64,000 nucleotides of DNA, from positions 609,114 to 673,113 of the forward strand of contig CAVSTR010000004.1 of NCBI GenBank assembly GCA_963730915.1, given 5' to 3'. The position numbers and the translations under genes are program-made. This document shows positions 6,959 to 64,000 of the stretch, one piece after another. Below the pieces are notes generated by a model that saw only the letters and a program-made list of their open reading frames with translations, was not told the origin of the DNA and made no database searches. The DNA is from an uncultured Gemmatimonadales bacterium (lineage in GTDB: Bacteria > Gemmatimonadota > Gemmatimonadetes > Gemmatimonadales > GWC2-71-9). Every line of letters begins with the position of its first letter. Positions within the stretch are counted from its first letter, which is position 1.

Positions 6959-8520
6959 GGTGCCAACCGTTCACGCGAGCCGGCGCCGTTCTGCTGATGG
7001 GGGTGATGTTTGCGAAGCAGTCACAGGCTCAGATGGCTCGGCCTGTGATCATCGCCTCTAAACCCTTCGGCGAGTCGTTTCTCCTGGCCGAGATGTTTGC
7101 GCAACTGCTCGAAGCCCGGGGGTTCCGAGTGGACAGGCGCATGGGCCTGGGTGCTACCGAAATCGCATTCACTGCCTTGAGACGCAATGCGATTGACGTC
7201 TATCCGGAATACACCGGTACCGGGCTTCTCGCCATTCTAGGGGAACGCCCCAGCTCCGACCCGGGGCAAGTGTATCAGCAGGTATCCCGCGAGTTCAGGC
7301 GACGCTACGGCGTACGGTGGCTGCCTCCGCTCGGCTTCCAGAACACCTATGCCATAGCGGTCCGCCGTGAAACCGCACAAAAGCTGGGACTCGCCAGCCT
7401 CAGCGATCTCGCGCGAGTCGGTACCACCCTGACAGCCGGCTTGACTGCAGACTTCATCGGCCGGCCCGACGGTCTGCCCGGGTTGCAGAAGGCATATGGG
7501 CTTCACTTTCACGCGGTCCGCGCTCTGTTGCCGGCGGTGAAGTATCGCGCGCTTGCCAGCGGAGACGTGGATGTGATCGATGGCTACTCTACCGATGGAT
7601 TCATCTCCCGATACGACCTTGTCGTCCTGAAGGACGATAAACGCTTCTTCCCGCCGTATGAGGCGGCAGCGATGATGAGCCCGGCGCTCCAGCGCGATCT
7701 TCCCGCCGTCGCCGGTGTACTGACCGAGTTGAGCGGGCTGCTGACGGAAGAGGGCATGCGCAGGTTGAATCAGCGTATCGAAGTCGATGGCATACCGATC
7801 AGCCGGGTCGCCGCCGGCCAGCTGATGACTCTCGGTCTTGTACGGCAGCCTACCGGTGGAACCGAGACAACTCCCGCCGACAGTCACAGCCCGGGTCTAT
7901 TGTCCTACCTCTGGGGTCAGCGCGGCACGATCGTCAGCCTGACTCTTCGGCATCTGCTGCTGGTAGGCGTCTCCTTACTTGCAGCCATCGCAGTTGCGCT
8001 GCCGCTGGGACTCGCGCTAGAACGCGGGCGGCGAGCCGCCGAGACAGTCATTCGTGGGGTTGGTGTGCTGCAGACCCTGCCGAGCATAGCCCTGCTCGCA
8101 TTCATGATTCCGCTGCTCGGGATCGGTGTGATTCCGGCGCTGGTCGCCCTCTTCCTGTACTCTCTGTATCCCATTCTGCGGAATACGTATACTGGCGTGC
8201 GAGACGCCGCCCCGGCAGCCGTGAGTGCGGCGGCCGCTGTGGGGATGACCCCGCGGCAGGTACTGGGTTACGTTCGACTGCCGCTGGCGGCGCCCACCAT
8301 TATGGCCGGCATCCGCACCGCGGCCGTCATCAACGTCGGCACAGCCACTTTGGCCGCCTTCATCGGAGCGGGTGGCCTGGGAGATCCCATTGCAGCGGGC
8401 CTTGCCCTGTCCGATACCAGAATGATTCTGTCCGGGGCGTTGCCTGCCGCGGTACTCGCGCTGCTGGTTGACGGCGTGCTCGGTGTATGCGAGCGCGTGG
8501 TCACCCCGGGCCGGCGGTAG
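6955..8520 (+). CDS. fused osmoprotectant ABC substrate-binding domain + permease
   Basis: 521 aa. Signal peptide, then a betaine/choline-type binding domain (VYPEYTGTGL, IDGYSTDG), then a ~200-aa ABC permease with 5-6 TM helices and loop AAAAVGMTPRQVLGYVRLPLA. Confidence 0.8.
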   Translation: MRCQPFTRAGAVLLMGVMFAKQSQAQMARPVIIASKPFGESFLLAEMFAQLLEARGFRVDRRMGLGATEIAFTALRRNAIDVYPEYTGTGLLAILGERPSSDPGQVYQQVSREFRRRYGVRWLPPLGFQNTYAIAVRRETAQKLGLASLSDLARVGTTLTAGLTADFIGRPDGLPGLQKAYGLHFHAVRALLPAVKYRALASGDVDVIDGYSTDGFISRYDLVVLKDDKRFFPPYEAAAMMSPALQRDLPAVAGVLTELSGLLTEEGMRRLNQRIEVDGIPISRVAAGQLMTLGLVRQPTGGTETTPADSHSPGLLSYLWGQRGTIVSLTLRHLLLVGVSLLAAIAVALPLGLALERGRRAAETVIRGVGVLQTLPSIALLAFMIPLLGIGVIPALVALFLYSLYPILRNTYTGVRDAAPAAVSAAAAVGMTPRQVLGYVRLPLAAPTIMAGIRTAAVINVGTATLAAFIGAGGLGDPIAAGLALSDTRMILSGALPAAVLALLVDGVLGVCERVVTPGRR

Positions 8521-20729: not shown

Positions 20730-22202
20730 GTGAGCTCCGGCAGACCTTCGGCCAGGAATGTCGACCTGAGCATTGGTTGCGTTACGCTCTTCCTCCTGCC
20801 GTTCGCTGGAGTTGGGCTCTTCACCGCGGCGATGGCGGTGCAGCGGCTCGCCGCCCACAACTGGACTGAAGCGCTCTTCTTCGCGCTGTTCGCCCTGACA
20901 TTCGGTGGTGTCGGAATTGGCGGCATAATCGCAGCGCTGGCTGGTCGCCGGACGCTGAAAGCGCAGGAACTGCTTCAGGCGAGCCACCCCGATACACCCT
21001 GGCTGTGGCGGCAGGATTGGGCCTCCGGGCACATTACCGATTCCAGCCGCAGCACCATGATCGGCACATGGCTGTTCGCCACCCTGTGGAACCTGATCGG
21101 CTTTCCTACAGGGTTTCTTTCGGTTCGCGCTGCCCTGAGAGAAGGCAGACCGGCCGCGTTCCTCGGGCTGCTATTTCCCATCGTAGGCGTTGGGCTGGTG
21201 GTCTGGGCCATCAGAACAACTCTCCGTCACTGGACATACGGTGTCTCCCGCCTCGAGCTTGCCACCGTGCCTGGCGTGGTTGGCAGGAGCCTCATCGGCA
21301 CGGTCCGCGCGCCTTCCATGATTCAGGCGGAGCAGGGGTTCGACCTGAGTTTGACATGTGTTCGCCGGATGACCCATGGAGGCGGGAAGCAGAGATCCAC
21401 ATCCGAAAGCATCCTGTGGCAGGACGTGCAGCGGGTTCCAGGCCGACCGTTCCGGGCGCCCGCCCGAATGGAAACGCACATCCCGGTAGCCTTCCGCATC
21501 TCGGCAGACGCGCCCTCCTCCGACGCCAATAACCCGGCAAATCGGGTAGTCTGGCAGCTCCAGGTCTCGGCCGACGTGCCCGGGGTGAACTACGAGTCAC
21601 GTTTCGACGTCCCCGTCTTTCGAACCCCAGCCAGCGAACAGCCGCTTTCACCCGAGGAGACTCGGCTCACTCAGGTTGCCGATATCACTGTATATCAGCA
21701 GCCCGCCGATTCTCGCATTCTGGTGAGTGCGACACGCCGGGGCACCGAGATTCTGTTTCCCGCCGCTCGCAACCTGGGCGTGGCGGTGAGCCTGACGGTG
21801 TTTCTCCTGATATGGCTGGCAGGGGTGGGTCTTCAGATCTACTTCGGCGCGCCGCTGATTTTTCCGATCGTCACCGGACTCTTCGCGCTGCTTCTTGTGG
21901 TCGTGGTATTGGACTTATGGCTCCAGGTATCACGCATCAGAGTGACTGCGGGGTCGGTTTCGTGGGCCACGGGATACATCGTCCCCGGGCGCGAGCACAT
22001 GATCCCAGCCTCGGAGATCGCCGAAGTCAGCGCCACAACCGGCATGCAGGCAGGCAACAGGGTGTACTACGATGTCGTGATCGTTCGGAAATTCGGAAAG
22101 AAGATCAAGGTGGGTCACTCGGTTCGCGACAAGCGCGAGGCCGATTGGCTGGCAGGTACGATTAAGAAGGCGTTAGGCCAGGAGCCGGGAGTTAGGAGCT
22201 AG
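20730..22202 (+). CDS. polytopic membrane protein, unknown function
   Basis: 490 aa. About 4 N-terminal TM helices, a ~170-aa soluble middle, 2 more TM helices (LGVAVSLTVFLLIWLAGVGL, LIFPIVTGLFALLLVVVVLDLWL), and a ~90-aa C-terminal domain. The last codons and the TAG stop lie inside the heptamer repeat arm. Confidence 0.6.
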   Translation: MSSGRPSARNVDLSIGCVTLFLLPFAGVGLFTAAMAVQRLAAHNWTEALFFALFALTFGGVGIGGIIAALAGRRTLKAQELLQASHPDTPWLWRQDWASGHITDSSRSTMIGTWLFATLWNLIGFPTGFLSVRAALREGRPAAFLGLLFPIVGVGLVVWAIRTTLRHWTYGVSRLELATVPGVVGRSLIGTVRAPSMIQAEQGFDLSLTCVRRMTHGGGKQRSTSESILWQDVQRVPGRPFRAPARMETHIPVAFRISADAPSSDANNPANRVVWQLQVSADVPGVNYESRFDVPVFRTPASEQPLSPEETRLTQVADITVYQQPADSRILVSATRRGTEILFPAARNLGVAVSLTVFLLIWLAGVGLQIYFGAPLIFPIVTGLFALLLVVVVLDLWLQVSRIRVTAGSVSWATGYIVPGREHMIPASEIAEVSATTGMQAGNRVYYDVVIVRKFGKKIKVGHSVRDKREADWLAGTIKKALGQEPGVRS

Positions 22203-22267
22203 GAGCTGGCAACTATTCAGCGCGTGCGGCTTGCACCTCCCAGCTCCCAGCTCCTGGCTCCTGACTC
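22178..22267. repeat. inverted arrays of heptamer [AG]GGAGC[TC] forming a hairpin between convergent genes
   Basis: Left arm 22178-22209 (CCAGGAGCCGGGAGTTAGGAGCTAGGAGCTGG). Right arm 22236-22267 (CCTCCCAGCTCCCAGCTCCTGGCTCCTGACTC) is its imperfect reverse complement. 26-nt spacer. Confidence 0.85.
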
Positions 22268-28264: not shown

Positions 28265-28357
28265 TGTCATCCTGAGCGAAGCGAAGAGCCTGCCCTGAGC
28301 CTGCCGAAGGGAGCCAAGCTCCCTCGGTATGGTCCCTTCGCTGCTTTCAGGGTGGCA
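28265..28357. repeat. REP-like palindromic element (TGTCATCCTGAGCGAAGCGAAG box pair)
   Basis: IR-L TGTCATCCTGAGCGAAGCGAAGAGCC (28265-28290). IR-R GGTCCCTTCGCTGCTTTCAGGGTGGCA (28331-28357) is its imperfect reverse complement. An inner palindrome GGGAGCCAAGCTCCC is also present. Located between the NrfD-like gene and fdhE. Confidence 0.8.
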
Positions 28358-28365
28358 AATGTTGA

Positions 28366-30101: not shown

Positions 30102-30203
30102 TGGCGGGGCAGCGGGGCAGCGGGGCTGCTAGTCAGCAACGGGTCACGACGGGCAGCGCTGGCGTCGACTGTCCCGCCGCCCCGCTGCCCCGCTGCCCCG
30201 CTG
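30102..30203. repeat. inverted octamer arrays (CAGCGGGG)3 / (CCCCGCTG)3 filling the fdhA-fdhB intercistronic region
   Basis: Left arm 30102-30125 TGGCGGGGCAGCGGGGCAGCGGGG. Right arm 30180-30203 CCCCGCTGCCCCGCTGCCCCGCTG. 54-nt spacer. By eye the arms pair at 22 of 24 positions. Confidence 0.85.
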
Positions 30204-34631: not shown

Positions 34632-34689
34632 CTACCGCCGTGCCGCCCATACCGCCTTACCGCCTTACCGCCCTAGTGACGAACGTCAC
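34632..34689. repeat. octamer array (TTACCGCC-type, 5 units) followed by palindrome GTGACGAACGTCAC
   Basis: CTACCGCC GTGCCGCC CATACCGCC TTACCGCC TTACCGCC (34632-34672), then GTGACGAACGTCAC (34676-34689). Located in a divergent promoter region. The unit matches the right arm of the 49.97 kb element. Confidence 0.8.
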
Positions 34690-46226: not shown

Positions 46227-46338
46227 GCGCCGCTGCCCCGCTGCCCCGCTGCCCCGCTGCCCCGCTGCCCCGCTGCCCCGCTGCCCCGCTTACCCGCTGC
46301 CCCGCTGCCCCGCTGCCCCGCTTACCTGCTCGCCCGCT
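46227..46338. repeat. tandem octamer array (GCCCCGCT, about 14 units, 10 perfect) between cphB and the cphA paralog
   Basis: Perfect units start at 46235, 46243, 46251, 46259, 46267, 46275, 46283, 46299, 46307 and 46315. Variants are GCGCCGCT, TACCCGCT, TACCTGCT and CGCCCGCT. Preceded by a TGTCATCCTG box at 46215. The minus-strand transcript would carry (AGCGGGGC)n. Confidence 0.9.
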
Positions 46339-47185
46339 TCGCCGTCTTGTCCCCTGTTTCGGTGCCTGCCCGAATGGCCAAAGCGGGCGCCGCCGCGGCT
46401 ACCCGGGTGTGGAGATTGAAGGTTGAGCCGTGATCCAGGATGTGCAACTTCAGCCCGATCAGACATATGGCGTCGTTCTTCCGCACCCGCGCCATGGACG
46501 AGAACTCGATGCCCGACGGGTCGACGATCGTGAGCGCTCCACTGCCGACCACTTCGAGAGTCTCATCGGGTGCAATGAACGCCGCCGTGTTCTCGTCCAG
46601 TCCGATCCCGATGGCGAACGGGTTGTAGGCCAGTGCCGTGAGCAGCCGGCCGAGGCGGTCGCGCTGGCGGAAGTGCTGGTCGATGATGACCCGGTTCGTG
46701 AGCCCCAGCCCCGGTGCCAGCGTGACGATCCTTGCTCGCGGGGACGCGCCTTCCTTTCCGAAGGCGATCATGTGCTCGCACAGGAACGCCGCTCCGGCCG
46801 ATGTCCCCGCGATGTGCATCCCCTCGACGTTTCGCTGACGCATCGCCTTGGCCACCGCCGTCCCACCGATCATGGTGCTCAGCCGAAGCTGGTTGCCGCC
46901 GGTGAGAAACACGCCGTCCACCTTGTGCAGGACCTCGAGCCACTCGGGCCGTTCGCAGTCGGCGCGGCTGGCGATGGGCAGGGCCTTCGCGTCGCCGACA
47001 CCGAGGCTCTTGAACAGCTCCTCATAGCGCCCGCCGGTATCGGTGAGCATGGACGCGGTCGGGATGATGGCGATGCGGCCTTTCGCACCCCCACAGAGCG
47101 TGGCGAAGCGTCGCAGAATGTGGATGTCTCCGATTTTCTCCTCGGCGCCGCCCACGGGGATGATGTAGCCTCTGGATTTCGCCAC
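46322..47185 (-). CDS. cphB: cyanophycinase (S51 peptidase)
   Basis: 287 aa. YIIPVGGAEEK, nucleophile context IAGTSAGAAFL, VIIDQHFRQRDRLGRL. The last codons overlap the octamer array. Confidence 0.9.
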   Translation of the reverse strand: MAKSRGYIIPVGGAEEKIGDIHILRRFATLCGGAKGRIAIIPTASMLTDTGGRYEELFKSLGVGDAKALPIASRADCERPEWLEVLHKVDGVFLTGGNQLRLSTMIGGTAVAKAMRQRNVEGMHIAGTSAGAAFLCEHMIAFGKEGASPRARIVTLAPGLGLTNRVIIDQHFRQRDRLGRLLTALAYNPFAIGIGLDENTAAFIAPDETLEVVGSGALTIVDPSGIEFSSMARVRKNDAICLIGLKLHILDHGSTFNLHTRVAAAAPALAIRAGTETGDKTAKRASR

Positions 47186-48407: not shown

Positions 48408-48500
48408 GTCTGGCGTCTAGTCGTCTGGCGTCTGGCGTCTAGCGTCTGGCGTCTCGGCGTCTGGCGTCTGGCGTCTGGCGTCTGGCGTCTGGCGTCTGGC
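48408..48500. repeat. tandem heptamer array (GTCTGGC, 13 units) in the iadA / egtB-like divergent region
   Basis: 10 perfect GTCTGGC units plus variants GTCTAGTC, GTCTAGC and GTCTCGGC. The last six are perfect and contiguous (48459-48500). A TGTCACCCCGAGC box follows at 48559-48571. Confidence 0.9.
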
Positions 48501-49804: not shown

Positions 49805-49991
49805 AGGCGGTAGGGCGGTATGGCGGTAGGTAGTGCGGCTGGGAATGGTTGAGTGATTGTCATCCCGAACGTAGTGAGGGATCGCTCCATCTGACGTCCG
49901 CACGACCATGGCCGCTCAGACGCCTCGTTAAGCGATCCCTCGCTTTGCTCGGGATGACATCCTTTTCCTAGCTTACCGCCTTCCCGCCTAC
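49804..49991. repeat. composite palindromic element: octamer arms + inverted TGTCATCCCGA REP boxes, spanning a whole convergent intergenic region
   Basis: Left arm 49804-49838 (AAGGCGGT AGGGCGGT ATGGCGGT AGG...). IR-L 49858-49886 TGTCATCCCGAACGTAGTGAGGGATCGCT. IR-R 49931-49959 AGCGATCCCTCGCTTTGCTCGGGATGACA. Right arm 49972-49991 (CTTACCGCC TTCCCGCC TAC). The arms touch the stop codons of both flanking genes. Confidence 0.85.
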
Positions 49992-50797
49992 TTCTCCAAT
50001 CCCGCAGGCACTCCACCCGGAAACTGCTTCTTTATCGCATCCTCGATCCGGGCGACTCGATTCTCCGGATTCGGATGGGTGCTGAAGAACTCCGGCGGCC
50101 GTCCTCCCTGCGAGCTCTCGTCCAGGATCTTCATCAGCCCGATCATCGAACGCGGATCGTAGCCCGCTTCGGAGGCGAGCCGCACGCCGAGCTGATCCGA
50201 TTGCAGCTCGTCCTGTCGGCCGAACCGCATCGTGACCAGTTGACCGATCAGTGCTGCGACTGCAGCCGAGCCCTGGGTCGATGGATTGTTGGGATCGTAG
50301 GTGGCGAGTACCGCCGCGCCGGTGAGTCCTTCGGTGAGCTGCTGCTTGGCGATGTGCTCGGCGCCGTGACGCGCCAGCACGTGCCCGATCTCGTGGCCCA
50401 GCACTCCGGCCAGCTGTCCTTCGGACTCGAGCCGGCGAACCAGTCCCTCGGTGATCGCGACCTGCCCACCCGGCAGAGCGAACGCGTTGATCGTCTCGGG
50501 ATCGTCGAGCAGGTGGAACTCGAACTTGTACGGGCTCTGCGCCGCGGCGGTGCGCGACACCAGCCGCTCGCCCACGCGGTCCACCAGTGCCTGCGCCTCG
50601 GGGCTCGGATCCAGCCCGCCGAACTGCTGCATCATCTCCGGTGCCGCCTGGAGACCGAGCGCTACTTCCTGTTCGGGAGTGATCCCGGCGACGTGCTGCT
50701 TTTCTTCGGTGATCGGATTGAACGCGCTCTTACTGAAGTATCCGATGACGGAGATGACCGCTACGATGAGGGCCATGACGAGCCGGCTGCGTGACAC
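49988..50797 (-). CDS. M48-family metallopeptidase (periplasmic BepA/YcaL-like)
   Basis: 269 aa. N-terminal anchor LVMALIVAVISVIGYF. Zinc motif HEIGHVLARH with downstream ELQSDQLG. Confidence 0.8.
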   Translation of the reverse strand: MSRSRLVMALIVAVISVIGYFSKSAFNPITEEKQHVAGITPEQEVALGLQAAPEMMQQFGGLDPSPEAQALVDRVGERLVSRTAAAQSPYKFEFHLLDDPETINAFALPGGQVAITEGLVRRLESEGQLAGVLGHEIGHVLARHGAEHIAKQQLTEGLTGAAVLATYDPNNPSTQGSAAVAALIGQLVTMRFGRQDELQSDQLGVRLASEAGYDPRSMIGLMKILDESSQGGRPPEFFSTHPNPENRVARIEDAIKKQFPGGVPAGLEK

Positions 50798-53444: not shown

Positions 53445-53567
53445 GGAGGGTCGGAGGGTCGGAGGGACGGAGGGACGGAGGATGTCACCCTCGGCGTAGC
53501 GAAGAGGCAGCGGGGCAGCGTAGGAGAAGATGTCACCCTGACCCCTCGCGAAGCGAGGGGGAGGGGC
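53445..53567. repeat. octamer array GGAGGG[TA]C (4.5 units) plus two TGTCACCC REP-like boxes, inside leuS
   Basis: Array 53445-53482. Boxes start at 53483 (TGTCACCCTCGGCGTAGCGAAGAGGC) and 53531 (TGTCACCCTGACCCCTCGCGAAGCGAGGGG). AGCGGGGCAGCG lies between them. It translates as GGSEGRRDGGCHPRRSEEAAGQRRRRCHPDPSRSEGEG. Confidence 0.85.
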
Positions 53568-53950
53568 CGAAACCCCGCGCGCCAGAGATCAAAGTCTTTA
53601 CGACGAGGCCCGACACCGTCTTCGGCGCCACCTTCATGGTCCTCGCTCCCGAGCACCCGCTGGTCGACTCGTTCACCACTCCGAAGCAGAAGGCGGAAGT
53701 GAACGCGTATCGCCAGGCGGCGACGTCGAAGGACCTGGTCTCCCGCAAGGTGGGCGACCGGGAGAAGACCGGCGTCTTCACCGGCGGCCACGCGATCAAT
53801 CCGGCCACCGGCAAGCCGATCCCGGTCTGGATCGCCGACTACGTGCTGATGGAGTACGGCACCGGTGCCATCATGGCGGTGCCCGGCCACGACCAGCGCG
53901 ACTTCGAGTTCGCTCAGAACGCTTCGAGTCTGCCGATTCTCAGAGTAGTC

Positions 53951-53995
53951 TGTCACCCTGAGCGGAGCGAAGGAGCCGAAGCTCCGCTTGAAGCC
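53951..53995. repeat. REP-like box inside leuS (TGTCACCCTGAGCGGAGCGAAGGAGCCGAAGCTCCGC)
   Basis: Hairpin GCGGAGC / GCTCCGC. Translated in frame as VCHPERSEGAEAPL, in the variable linker after HDQRDFEFA. Confidence 0.75.
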
Positions 53996-60356: not shown

Positions 60357-63525
<3,169 letters not shown>

Positions 63526-63585
63526 TCCTGCCTCTGTTCGTGGAATGGGCGGAATATGCCGGTGAGCGCGGGGGTTAGCCAGTAT

Positions 63586-63813
63586 GAGCTGGGAGCTGGG
63601 AGCTAGGAGCTAGGAGCAACGTTGTCATCCTGAGCCCTTCGACTTGCTCAGGGTAAACTCCGCGAAGGTCTCTCCGAGAGGTAGATCCGGGCTCGGACTT
63701 GGACGAGAGGTACCGGTGGGTTCTGCGGAGGCACTGCGATCCCAATCACAGAACCAGATTCCCGCGTTTCGAGCTCCCAGCTCCCAGCTCCCGGCTCCTA
63801 GCTCCCAGCTCCC
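63586..63813. repeat. composite palindromic element: heptamer GGAGCT[GA] arms flanking a TGTCATCCTGAGC-containing core
   Basis: Left arm 63586-63617 (GAGCTGG GAGCTGG GAGCTAG GAGCTAG GAGC). Box TGTCATCCTGAGC at 63623. Right arm 63771-63813 (GAGCTCC CAGCTCC CAGCTCC CGGCTCC TAGCTCC CAGCTCC C) is the reverse complement of the same heptamer family used at 22.2 kb. Confidence 0.85.
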
Positions 63814-63896
63814 ACGCGGGTGATCCATACCACGGTCCTTCCTACTGGTGCGCACAACCATTCGAGTGCACCGGCGCTTACACACCAGGAGGATCT

Positions 63897-64000
63897 ATGC
63901 CGGAGAAAGAGACGATCGAGCGCGCGCGCAAGGACGCCCGCGAGGGAAAGTCGCCGTCCACCCAGGCCGGCGAGTTCGTGCGGGAGGAGATCCATCACAT
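63897..64000 (+). CDS. small basic protein, N-terminal part (DUF6496-like; runs off the window end)
   Basis: Not in ORF track. ATG at 63897 preceded by AGGAGGA. MPEKETIERARKDAREGKSPSTQAGEFVREEIHH matches a small conserved stress-associated family as I recall it. Confidence 0.5.
   Translation, partial: MPEKETIERARKDAREGKSPSTQAGEFVREEIHH

Follow-up and report, generated by a model that had tools for sequence, protein, structure and literature searches.

The window analyzed here is a stretch of 64,000 nt from contig CAVSTR010000004.1 of an uncultured Gemmatimonadales bacterium (assembly GCA_963730915.1, positions 609,114 to 673,113, forward strand). The best protein matches likewise point to Gemmatimonadales. 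Our subject is an element at 63586-63814 in which two inverted arrays of GGAGCTR heptamers, here called arms, face each other across a core that carries a palindromic box. The element is housed in a 371-bp spacer between two divergent genes, those of a Ser/Thr kinase (minus strand, ATG at 63525-63523) and of a small basic protein (plus strand, ATG at 63898, 83 nt from the right arm). The spacer is made up as follows.

63526-63585, minus strand: conserved block upstream of the kinase, presumed to be the kinase 5' untranslated region (UTR) and promoter
63586-63617, plus strand: left arm, (GAGCTGG)2(GAGCTAG)2GAGC, that is, 4.6 GGAGCTR units (Tandem Repeats Finder, TRF: period 7, 96% matches)
63618-63771, plus strand: core, 154 nt between the arms
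63618-63622, plus strand: linker AACGT, 5 nt, joining the left arm to the box
63623-63668, plus strand: box, 46 nt, TGTCATCCTGAGC..GCTCAGGGTAAACTCCGCGAAGG, with the hairpin CCTGAGC/GCTCAGG (GCTCAGG lies 10 nt beyond TGTCATCCTGAGC); one terminal module of a palindromic repeat resembling repetitive extragenic palindromes (REPs)
63669-63697, plus strand: 29 nt with no counterpart in any compared locus
63698-63771, plus strand: orthologous intergenic spacer, with the small hairpin GGTTCTG..CAGAACC
63772-63814, minus strand: right arm, six inverted heptamers (AGCTCCC x3, GGCTCCT, AGCTCCC x2) and a final A (TRF: 6.1 copies, 88% matches)
63815-63897, plus strand: leader of the plus-strand gene, with AGGAGG at about 63889; the product begins MPEKETIERARKDAREGKSPSTQAGEF

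The initial annotation, made from the letters of this DNA, had described the heptamer composition of the two arms and their relationship as inverted copies of GGAGCT[GA], and both descriptions are borne out by the sequence and by TRF. The same is true of the box, which follows the left arm at a distance of 5 nt and can pair with GCTCAGG, and of the flanked core, except that its length is 154 nt and not 153. The arms are perfectly complementary over 19 nt (63586-63604 with 63772-63790), and complementarity is 93% over 28 nt and 88% over 32 nt. When the window was searched with the probe GGAGCTRGGAGCT, allowing at most one mismatch, all 14 matches fell at 63585-63812 or in a second hairpin, at 22188-22261, compared with 0.24 matches in shuffled sequences, and none of the 100 shuffles reached 14. 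The fold of the whole element beats shuffles (z of -3.5 and -5.8), with the stem visible in the folds, whereas the core is no better than shuffles (z of +1.3 and +0.2); the excess stability comes from the arms alone, and on these values we rejected the core as a structured RNA. Given that two genes of the window (the kinase and leuS) show frame changes, small assembly indels are possible, and exact unit counts may be slightly off.

The decisive comparison is with an orthologous spacer in a soil metagenome contig (L127), which came to light when the compared loci were searched by BLAST with the unique portion of the core. The gene pair matches that of the window, namely the kinase start and the right-hand gene, and the flanks are 91-92% identical (63500-63583 to 7194-7111, 91.7%; 63861-64000, 90.8%). 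Inside the spacer, 63698-63738 is collinear with 7010-6971 (92.7%) and 63737-63755 with 6941-6923 (94.7%); about 75 nt of the core are retained together with the box TGTCATCC, which lies in the inverted orientation. The box junction GGAGCAACGTTGTCATCCTGAGC (GGAGC-AACGT-TGTCATCCTGAGC, 63613-63635) is matched at all 23 positions by 7022-7044 on the minus strand of L127. Nevertheless, the L127 spacer has no heptamer arrays on either side: in place of the left arm there is tcgggaaggacgggaacgccgggaagagcc, with three degenerate GGGAAGGAC-like units, and in place of the six units of the right arm a single AGCTC (cgttttcgAGCTCgcgtgatcc). A further 29 nt present in L127 extend the GGTTCTG..CAGAACC hairpin to 16 bp. 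Thus, arms can be present or absent around one spacer, and the box predates the arms and can flip. Because 63698-63755 is collinear with the armless L127, about half of what the initial annotation took for the core of a composite is ordinary spacer. Presence or absence at orthologous loci, which that annotation had brought up for whole elements, applies here to the arms, the spacer and the flipped box being present in L127.

The block upstream of the kinase is more widely conserved. In six kinase-homolog loci (L119, L120, L121, L165, L166 and L167; 84-89% amino acid identity), the 60-nt block is kept and the arms are absent, with only a box palindrome at the equivalent place in L165. Homology to the relatives stops 2-3 nt short of the left arm. 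The neighboring genes differ in these six loci, so they were unusable as empty sites. A simple promoter scan gave no match to the sigma-70 consensus in the block upstream of the kinase, and a scan of 63400-64000 for a GC-rich hairpin followed by a T run found no terminator-like site. There is no direct repeat or target-site duplication at the arm boundaries, where the left flank ends in GCCAGTAT and the right flank begins with CGCGGGTG.

Within the core, only the 46 nt of the box (63623-63668) are repetitive. The reverse complement of this segment matches the 46-47-nt right-end module of the boxes in two metagenome contigs, L125 and L131 (scores of 80 and 71, shuffled sequences reaching at most 27), and the remaining 103 nt of the core have no match to the composites of L125, L128 and L131. 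No part of the core beyond a 13-nt box word recurs elsewhere in the window; about 1 Mb of compared loci contain no copy of the core except the 46-nt module and the ortholog L127. The strict box motif is present in 7 copies in the 64-kb window, compared with 0.13 expected, and also in Gemmatimonadales and Acidobacteria loci; one of the copies is located inside leuS. Besides single copies, there are inverted doublets about 100 nt long (49858-49959, 28265-28362, L120, L165). REPs have been defined by a GT(A/G)G head directly 5' of the palindrome (Nunvar et al. 2010, PMC2817692). In its copy number and arrangement, the box behaves like a repeat of the REP or REPIN (REP doublet forming hairpin) type, although the head in the listed copies is TGTCA[CT]CC (TGTCAY), not GT(A/G)G. 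A metagenome scan for junctions of arm and box produced ten contigs, with full composites in three (L125, L128, L131). All three share one layout: a GGAGCTR arm, 0-5 nt, a palindromic box of 85-112 nt (TGTCAYCCTGAG...CTCAGGATGACA), 15-20 nt and an inverted arm, the box being flush with one arm and 15-20 nt off the other.

The core resembles no known RNA or protein-coding gene. Searches with Rfam models, at gathering and at permissive thresholds, gave nothing meaningful for the element (the best hit was a plant microRNA model that merely fits a long hairpin), and no rRNA or other Rfam family was found in the window. We rejected the core as a decayed four-helix-bundle gene, given that a profile of four such proteins, run with filters off, did not match the element, its best hit in the window (E = 8.6) lying elsewhere. 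Literature searches with the exact box and arm sequences returned unrelated primer matches only.

Although this copy encloses no gene, inverted heptamer arrays flank nothing, a box or an S23p gene, and the architecture is widespread. GGAGCTR arms were found around short loops (L002, L058, L076, L095, L112) and around the box element (L125, L128, L131), and arms of the GGAGCTR family (GGAGCYR) around a four-helix-bundle gene (L050, L037). Conversely, arms built of other units enclose boxes or four-helix-bundle genes (window 49806-49996, L109, L105 and 33 viral loci), which bears on the question, raised in the initial annotation, whether cores are interchangeable between arm families. The four-helix-bundle family in question is TIGR02436, the S23p protein of the intervening sequence (IVS) of 23S rRNA. 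In all four of the GTDB loci that contain it, heptamer arrays lie on both sides of the gene, with units that differ by cassette (GGAGCYR in L050 and L037, GAAGAGT in L109, GGTTCTA plus TAGCTCC in L105). Adding a second, independent sample of 33 genes on viral contigs (L132-L164) brings the total to 37 S23p-type genes, among which 22 have significantly complementary flanking arrays of 20-48 nt, in cassettes of 360-520 nt; after near-duplicates were collapsed by eye, the tally was about 18 of 29. Most of the remaining genes have at least one array. Copy numbers in the arrays of these cassettes cluster between 3.4 and 5.7, the units being heptamers, sometimes octamers, that vary from cassette to cassette. 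The element at 63586-63814 is an instance of this S23p/IVS-stem architecture without an open reading frame (ORF) and outside rRNA, with a REP-like box in its loop. Searches of the literature for TIGR02436 and S23p returned nothing, or a Coxiella paper (PMC4990558) alone, and in the searchable literature we found no general account of S23p genes bracketed by inverted heptamer arrays beyond the Coxiella IVS.

The reuse of units within the genome is another regularity. Three unit families occur at two separate loci each within the 64 kb: GGAGCTR (22180 and 63586), the octamer CGGGGCAG (30104/30169 and 46230) and GGCGGTAR (34633-34672 and 49806-49830). By our rough estimate of about 1,200 possible heptamer classes, such reuse is hard to get by chance. 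The CGGGGCAG octamer forms a hairpin between two minus-strand genes at 30104/30169 (30104-30203) and a lone array of 12 units at 46230-46339, directly after TGTCATCCTGCAGCG. GGCGGTAR takes part in the other full composite of the window:

49806-49996, plus strand: (GGCGGTAG)3, box palindrome TGTCATCCCGA..TCGGGATGACA (49858-49959) and a degenerate inverted arm

Across genomes, the same argument loses its force. A scan for four GGAGCTR units, with one genome per species, detected at least 118 stretches, the listed ones coming from Acidobacteriota, Gemmatimonadota, Planctomycetota, Verrucomicrobiota, Bacteroidota, Gammaproteobacteria, Thermomicrobiales, Streptomyces and others. Among the matches listed, 7 of the 118 have a partner array in inverted orientation no more than 600 nt away, and 4 of these 7 belong to Gemmatimonadales (11 loci), with loops of 15-29 nt. 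In a viral collection, GGAGCTR formed 14 stretches, and two permuted control heptamers formed 3 and 35. Because the controls form arrays at a comparable frequency, the sharing of GGAGCTR across genomes is weak evidence of common descent, and the idea that it is a special, horizontally spreading unit is weakened. GGAGCTR as a mark of one family therefore holds within this genome and probably does not across phyla; the inference in the initial annotation from shared arm units to a common family falls short beyond the genome in which it was drawn.

The second GGAGCTR locus of the window is a minimal hairpin at a convergent gene junction.

22180-22207, plus strand: left arm, GGAGCYR/GGAGTTA units, covering the last 8 codons of ORF 20730-22202
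22237-22262, minus strand: right arm, directly downstream of the convergent minus-strand gene

The initial annotation had placed this hairpin at 22178-22267 with a 26-bp spacer. It was right about the shared heptamer family and the missing box, and the spacer between the arms is 29 nt (z of -5.9 for the hairpin). The product of ORF 20730-22202 is 100% identical, over the 299 C-terminal residues compared, to a public protein of 490 amino acids (P0121), which is also present in an assembly of sequencing run ERR11571147. Orthologs of ORF 20730-22202 were found in L168 (86% amino acid identity), L169 (80%) and L170 (78%), with gene order kept, and all three have an inverted-array hairpin at the equivalent convergent junction. 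Its sequence differs from one to the next: L168 has GGAGCYR arms around a loop of about 5 nt (z of -4.2), L169 a different unit, GGCTAWT/AATAGCC (z of -4.6), and L170 a short GGGAGCC hairpin (z of -1.7). Position and pairing are thus retained and the sequence is replaced. Because a hairpin is kept at the same convergent junction in the relatives, 22180-22262 is probably a terminator-like or 3'-end-protecting stem-loop. The conservation with swapped units is compatible with two explanations, selection for the stem-loop as a bidirectional terminator or 3'-end protector, or arm complementarity that maintains itself.

Taken together, these results make it fairly probable, in our judgment, that at 63586-63814 the inverted GGAGCTR arrays emerged in place, or disappeared, around a spacer that was already there with the REP-like box TGTCAYCCTGAGC..., and that the whole is not a transposon-like unit. 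Insertion of the entire element is disfavored because L127 keeps the spacer and the box without the arms. The arms represent either a local, lineage-specific gain or a loss in L127, and parsimony favors gain. Array copy number also changes between samples at another locus: L122 4548-4720 and L127 1320-1150 are one locus from two soil samples, in which a box is flanked by a GGAGCTR array and, on its opposite side, by an array of 9-mers (CCCGTCCTT) not complementary to the first; the 9-mer array differs by one unit between the two samples. Conserved function at 63586-63814 is unlikely because the copy is lineage-specific and lies upstream of both genes.

The steps by which such arms form may be envisaged as follows. 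Arrays would grow by replication slippage, and strand or template switching between short homologous stretches would create the inverted partner or maintain its complementarity; the AGCTC seed at the right-arm site of the ortholog and the AGCT palindrome within the unit could be the source of this homology. Template switching would yield complementary arms without selection and around arbitrary cargo; at a convergent junction, the resulting stem would be useful and hence retained. An RNA covering both arms, if transcribed, would contain a duplex of about 30 bp, a potential substrate for an RNase III-type enzyme. The right arm, being C-rich, could also base-pair with the AGGAGG downstream of it. 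In DNA, the element could be extruded as a cruciform between the divergent genes, and the G-rich strand of the right arm has the potential to form a G-quadruplex.

Several observations weigh against formation in place as we have outlined it. The direction of change, gain or loss, rests on parsimony and on a single locus with the same gene pair (L127). The flipped box and the unmatched 29 nt at 63669-63697 show that more has happened here than the growth of arrays. Several metagenome contigs have the parts in one and the same order, so that an arm and a box could sometimes move together. Template switching is a hypothesis, and the RNA stem and the cruciform are both predictions.

The most obvious alternative is a non-autonomous transposon resembling a miniature inverted-repeat transposable element (MITE), in which the heptamer arrays would serve as terminal inverted repeats and arm, core and arm would spread as one unit. 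Such an element would account for the same part order in the independent metagenome contigs L125, L128 and L131, for the GGAGCTR unit at two loci of the window and for presence that varies among distant relatives, as with the L002 hairpin, which separates two genes that in the window have only 20 nt between them. Like MITEs, the element is small, non-coding and bounded by inverted repeats, and its presence differs between relatives. However, its inverted repeats consist of microsatellites that vary in unit and copy number, its boundaries show no target-site duplication, and the interior is orthologous spacer, unique outside the 46-nt box module. Neither many copies sharing an interior nor an empty site in a relative that lacks the whole element was found; instead, the arm-free site in L127 still holds the box and most of the core (about 75 nt). 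Moreover, arm units differ among otherwise similar cassettes, and the box at the L122/L127 locus has non-complementary arrays. We consider such a transposon improbable. The modular, spreading family proposed in the initial annotation survives in one respect, namely that arms and cores are separable and occur in many combinations; a discrete full composite that spreads as a unit does not, given the armless L127 with its box, the mere 46 nt of repetitive sequence and the lack of a target-site duplication.

An unlikely, if slightly better placed, possibility is a functional RNA. If both arms were transcribed, they would form a duplex of 28-32 bp that might be cleaved by RNase III as in the IVS; alternatively, the six CUCC units of the right arm might pair with AGGAGG and tune translation. 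The length and heptamer make-up of the stem fit IVS stems, inverted heptamer arrays surround 22 of the 37 S23p-type genes, and the right arm is close upstream of the ATG; in addition, a heptamer repeat system of Haemophilus influenzae is reported to involve a 5' UTR targeted by RNase III (PMC12721329). On the other hand, the arms are missing in an ortholog that is about 91% identical, indicating that any function is not conserved, and the conserved kinase block reaches right up to the left arm, so that an RNA running through both arms would have to start from a promoter within this block, whereas no promoter or terminator consensus was found; nor does the core have excess structure or an Rfam match. 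Lack of conservation in L127 speaks equally against a DNA-structure element at the divergent promoter region, where a cruciform, or a G-quadruplex of the GGGAGCT repeats in the right arm, would affect transcription or supercoiling. The location between divergent genes and the five GGG runs in the right arm's minus strand, spaced mostly by AGCT, are in line with this possibility, as are the G-rich heptamers of Xanthomonas, which are also of the GGGNNNN type and often form inverted pairs (PMC4692102). The left arm, however, has two GGG runs only, and many arrays of the class lack G-richness, in the S23p cassettes as well as in the window, so that we give this explanation little credence. That the element is an assembly artefact, with repeats collapsed or chimerically joined, is hardly credible: the frame breaks in two genes of the window do suggest some indel errors, but the architecture recurs in many independent assemblies, short-read ones included (L076, L095, L125, L128, L131), and the flanks are collinear with L127.

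A more speculative reading, to which we assign a low probability, would make the inverted heptamer stem-loops the cis-elements of a widespread S23p/four-helix-bundle (Avd-like) system. A pentameric protein would recognize or generate arms of about five heptamers (28-35 nt); gene-bearing cassettes would be autonomous, the 23S rRNA IVS would be a special case, and 63586-63814 and 22180-22262 would be non-autonomous derivatives generated or kept up in trans. If true, this would account for the complementarity of the arms within one cassette despite their different sequences in different cassettes.

The element has parallels in several known systems. In the IVS of Coxiella, terminal inverted repeats form a stem of 28 bp and include tandem heptamers whose number depends on the strain; RNase III cuts within the stem, and the IVS is conserved in all strains (PMC4990558). 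In general, 23S rRNA IVSs with an S23p ORF (Coxiella, Leptospira, Xanthomonas) resemble the element in having a heptamer-built stem of about 28-32 bp (4-6 heptamers) of variable copy number and a loop that ranges from about 150 nt to several hundred. By contrast, 63586-63814 lies outside rRNA, in the spacer between the kinase and the small basic protein, contains neither an ORF nor a remnant of S23p, and has arms that are absent from a close ortholog, unlike the IVS present in all Coxiella strains. S23p-type genes outside rRNA are enclosed by inverted heptamer arrays in 22 of 37 cases, two of these having GGAGCYR arms.

The second parallel is with the intergenic heptamer simple sequence repeats (SSRs) of Xanthomonas (GGGAATC) and Nostoc, which are also of the GGGNNNN type, mostly have about 4 units, lie close to partners on the opposite strand and turn over fast. 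In Xanthomonas, there are 70-75 convergent pairs of GGGAATC arrays per genome, with lengths that vary between close species (Rehm et al. 2015, PMC4692102), and effects of DNA structure on transcription or supercoiling have been proposed for them; a passage of the same paper credits the over-representation of heptamer SSRs to a 2007 survey. The arrays at 63586, like these pairs, have at least two units, are intergenic and are accompanied by a second array on the other strand, and variation in presence or length between close relatives is seen in the armless L127, in the unit number of L122 and L127, and in the units and lengths at the 22180 site. The differences are that the host belongs to Gemmatimonadota, the unit is another one, octamer arrays are about as common as heptamers, and there is a tight tie to a palindromic box; furthermore, here the comparison with an ortholog shows arrays bracketing a pre-existing spacer.

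The box itself is comparable to REPs, REPINs and bacterial interspersed mosaic elements (BIMEs): it is a short, mostly extragenic, imperfect palindrome with a conserved 5' head, at high copy in the 64-kb window, and forms singles and inverted doublets, but its head is TGTCAY and not GT(A/G)G, and flanking tandem arrays are foreign to REPs. The TAACTGA or short tandemly repeated repetitive (STRR) heptamers of Beggiatoaceae and cyanobacteria are nearly always direct, oriented toward the downstream start codon and inverted in only 1 of 170 sets (PMC4679880). They share with the arrays described here a genome-specific intergenic vocabulary of heptamers, sets of 2-6 units, mixed heptamers and unexplained sharing across phyla.

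A single spacer seen with and without arms implies that existing DNA can acquire inverted heptamer arms by a route other than insertion. Our survey connects three kinds of feature, namely intergenic inverted heptamer arrays, REP-like boxes and the stems around S23p/four-helix-bundle genes. To our knowledge, the over-representation of heptamer microsatellites in bacterial intergenic DNA has no accepted explanation, and we know of none for the origin of the 23S rRNA IVS, after decades. If the link holds genome-wide, the IVS would exemplify a general process of hairpin building, and the hairpin at 22180, with its conserved position and swapped units, would provide a natural test case for structure-driven selection versus self-maintained complementarity of the arms.

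Further arrays and boxes were observed in the window and in the compared loci. A lone array, (GTCTGGC)13, lies at 48408-48500, with a box-like GTCACCCCGAGC 60 nt downstream and no inverted partner found. Within the reading frame of leuS, at 53445-53580, between NWLGRS... and ...KVFTTRPDT, there is an octamer array (GGAGGGAC x4.6) followed by two boxes, with a frame change across them; at 53952-53985, the same gene has an in-frame box, GTCACCCTGAGCGGAGCGAAGGAGCC, translated as CHPERSEGAEAP. These repeats are either a translated insertion in an essential gene, the mark of a pseudogene or an assembly indel. In Stieleria mannarensis (L062, 1-800), more than 35 mixed units (GGGAGTT, GGGAGTG, GGAGCTG) and mirrored arms around about 370 nt lie just upstream of a parA-like gene. 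A Gemmatimonadales locus (L032, 3597-3850) is nested, its outer GGAGCTR-like arms enclosing GGGCATC, CAATCGG and GACTCAG arrays and the box palindrome TTGTCATTCCGAGCGCAGCGTGGAATGACA. The control unit GCGAGTR forms arrays at at least 7 places in one 40-kb viral contig, IMGVR_UViG_3300032160_000019 (L191, L196, L217, L219, L221, L189), which is another genome-specific heptamer vocabulary.

Finally, the kinase to the left of the element, together with a C-terminal part rich in tetratricopeptide repeats (TPRs; 60357-63525, minus strand), is encoded in two overlapping frames that meet near 62780. It is split likewise in related assemblies, short-read ones included: L120 and L121 have ORFs of 317-318 and 738 amino acids with a 4-nt overlap, and L165 and L166 are similar. 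Instead of being an error, the split may thus be genuine, with either a pair of coupled genes or programmed frameshifting behind it.

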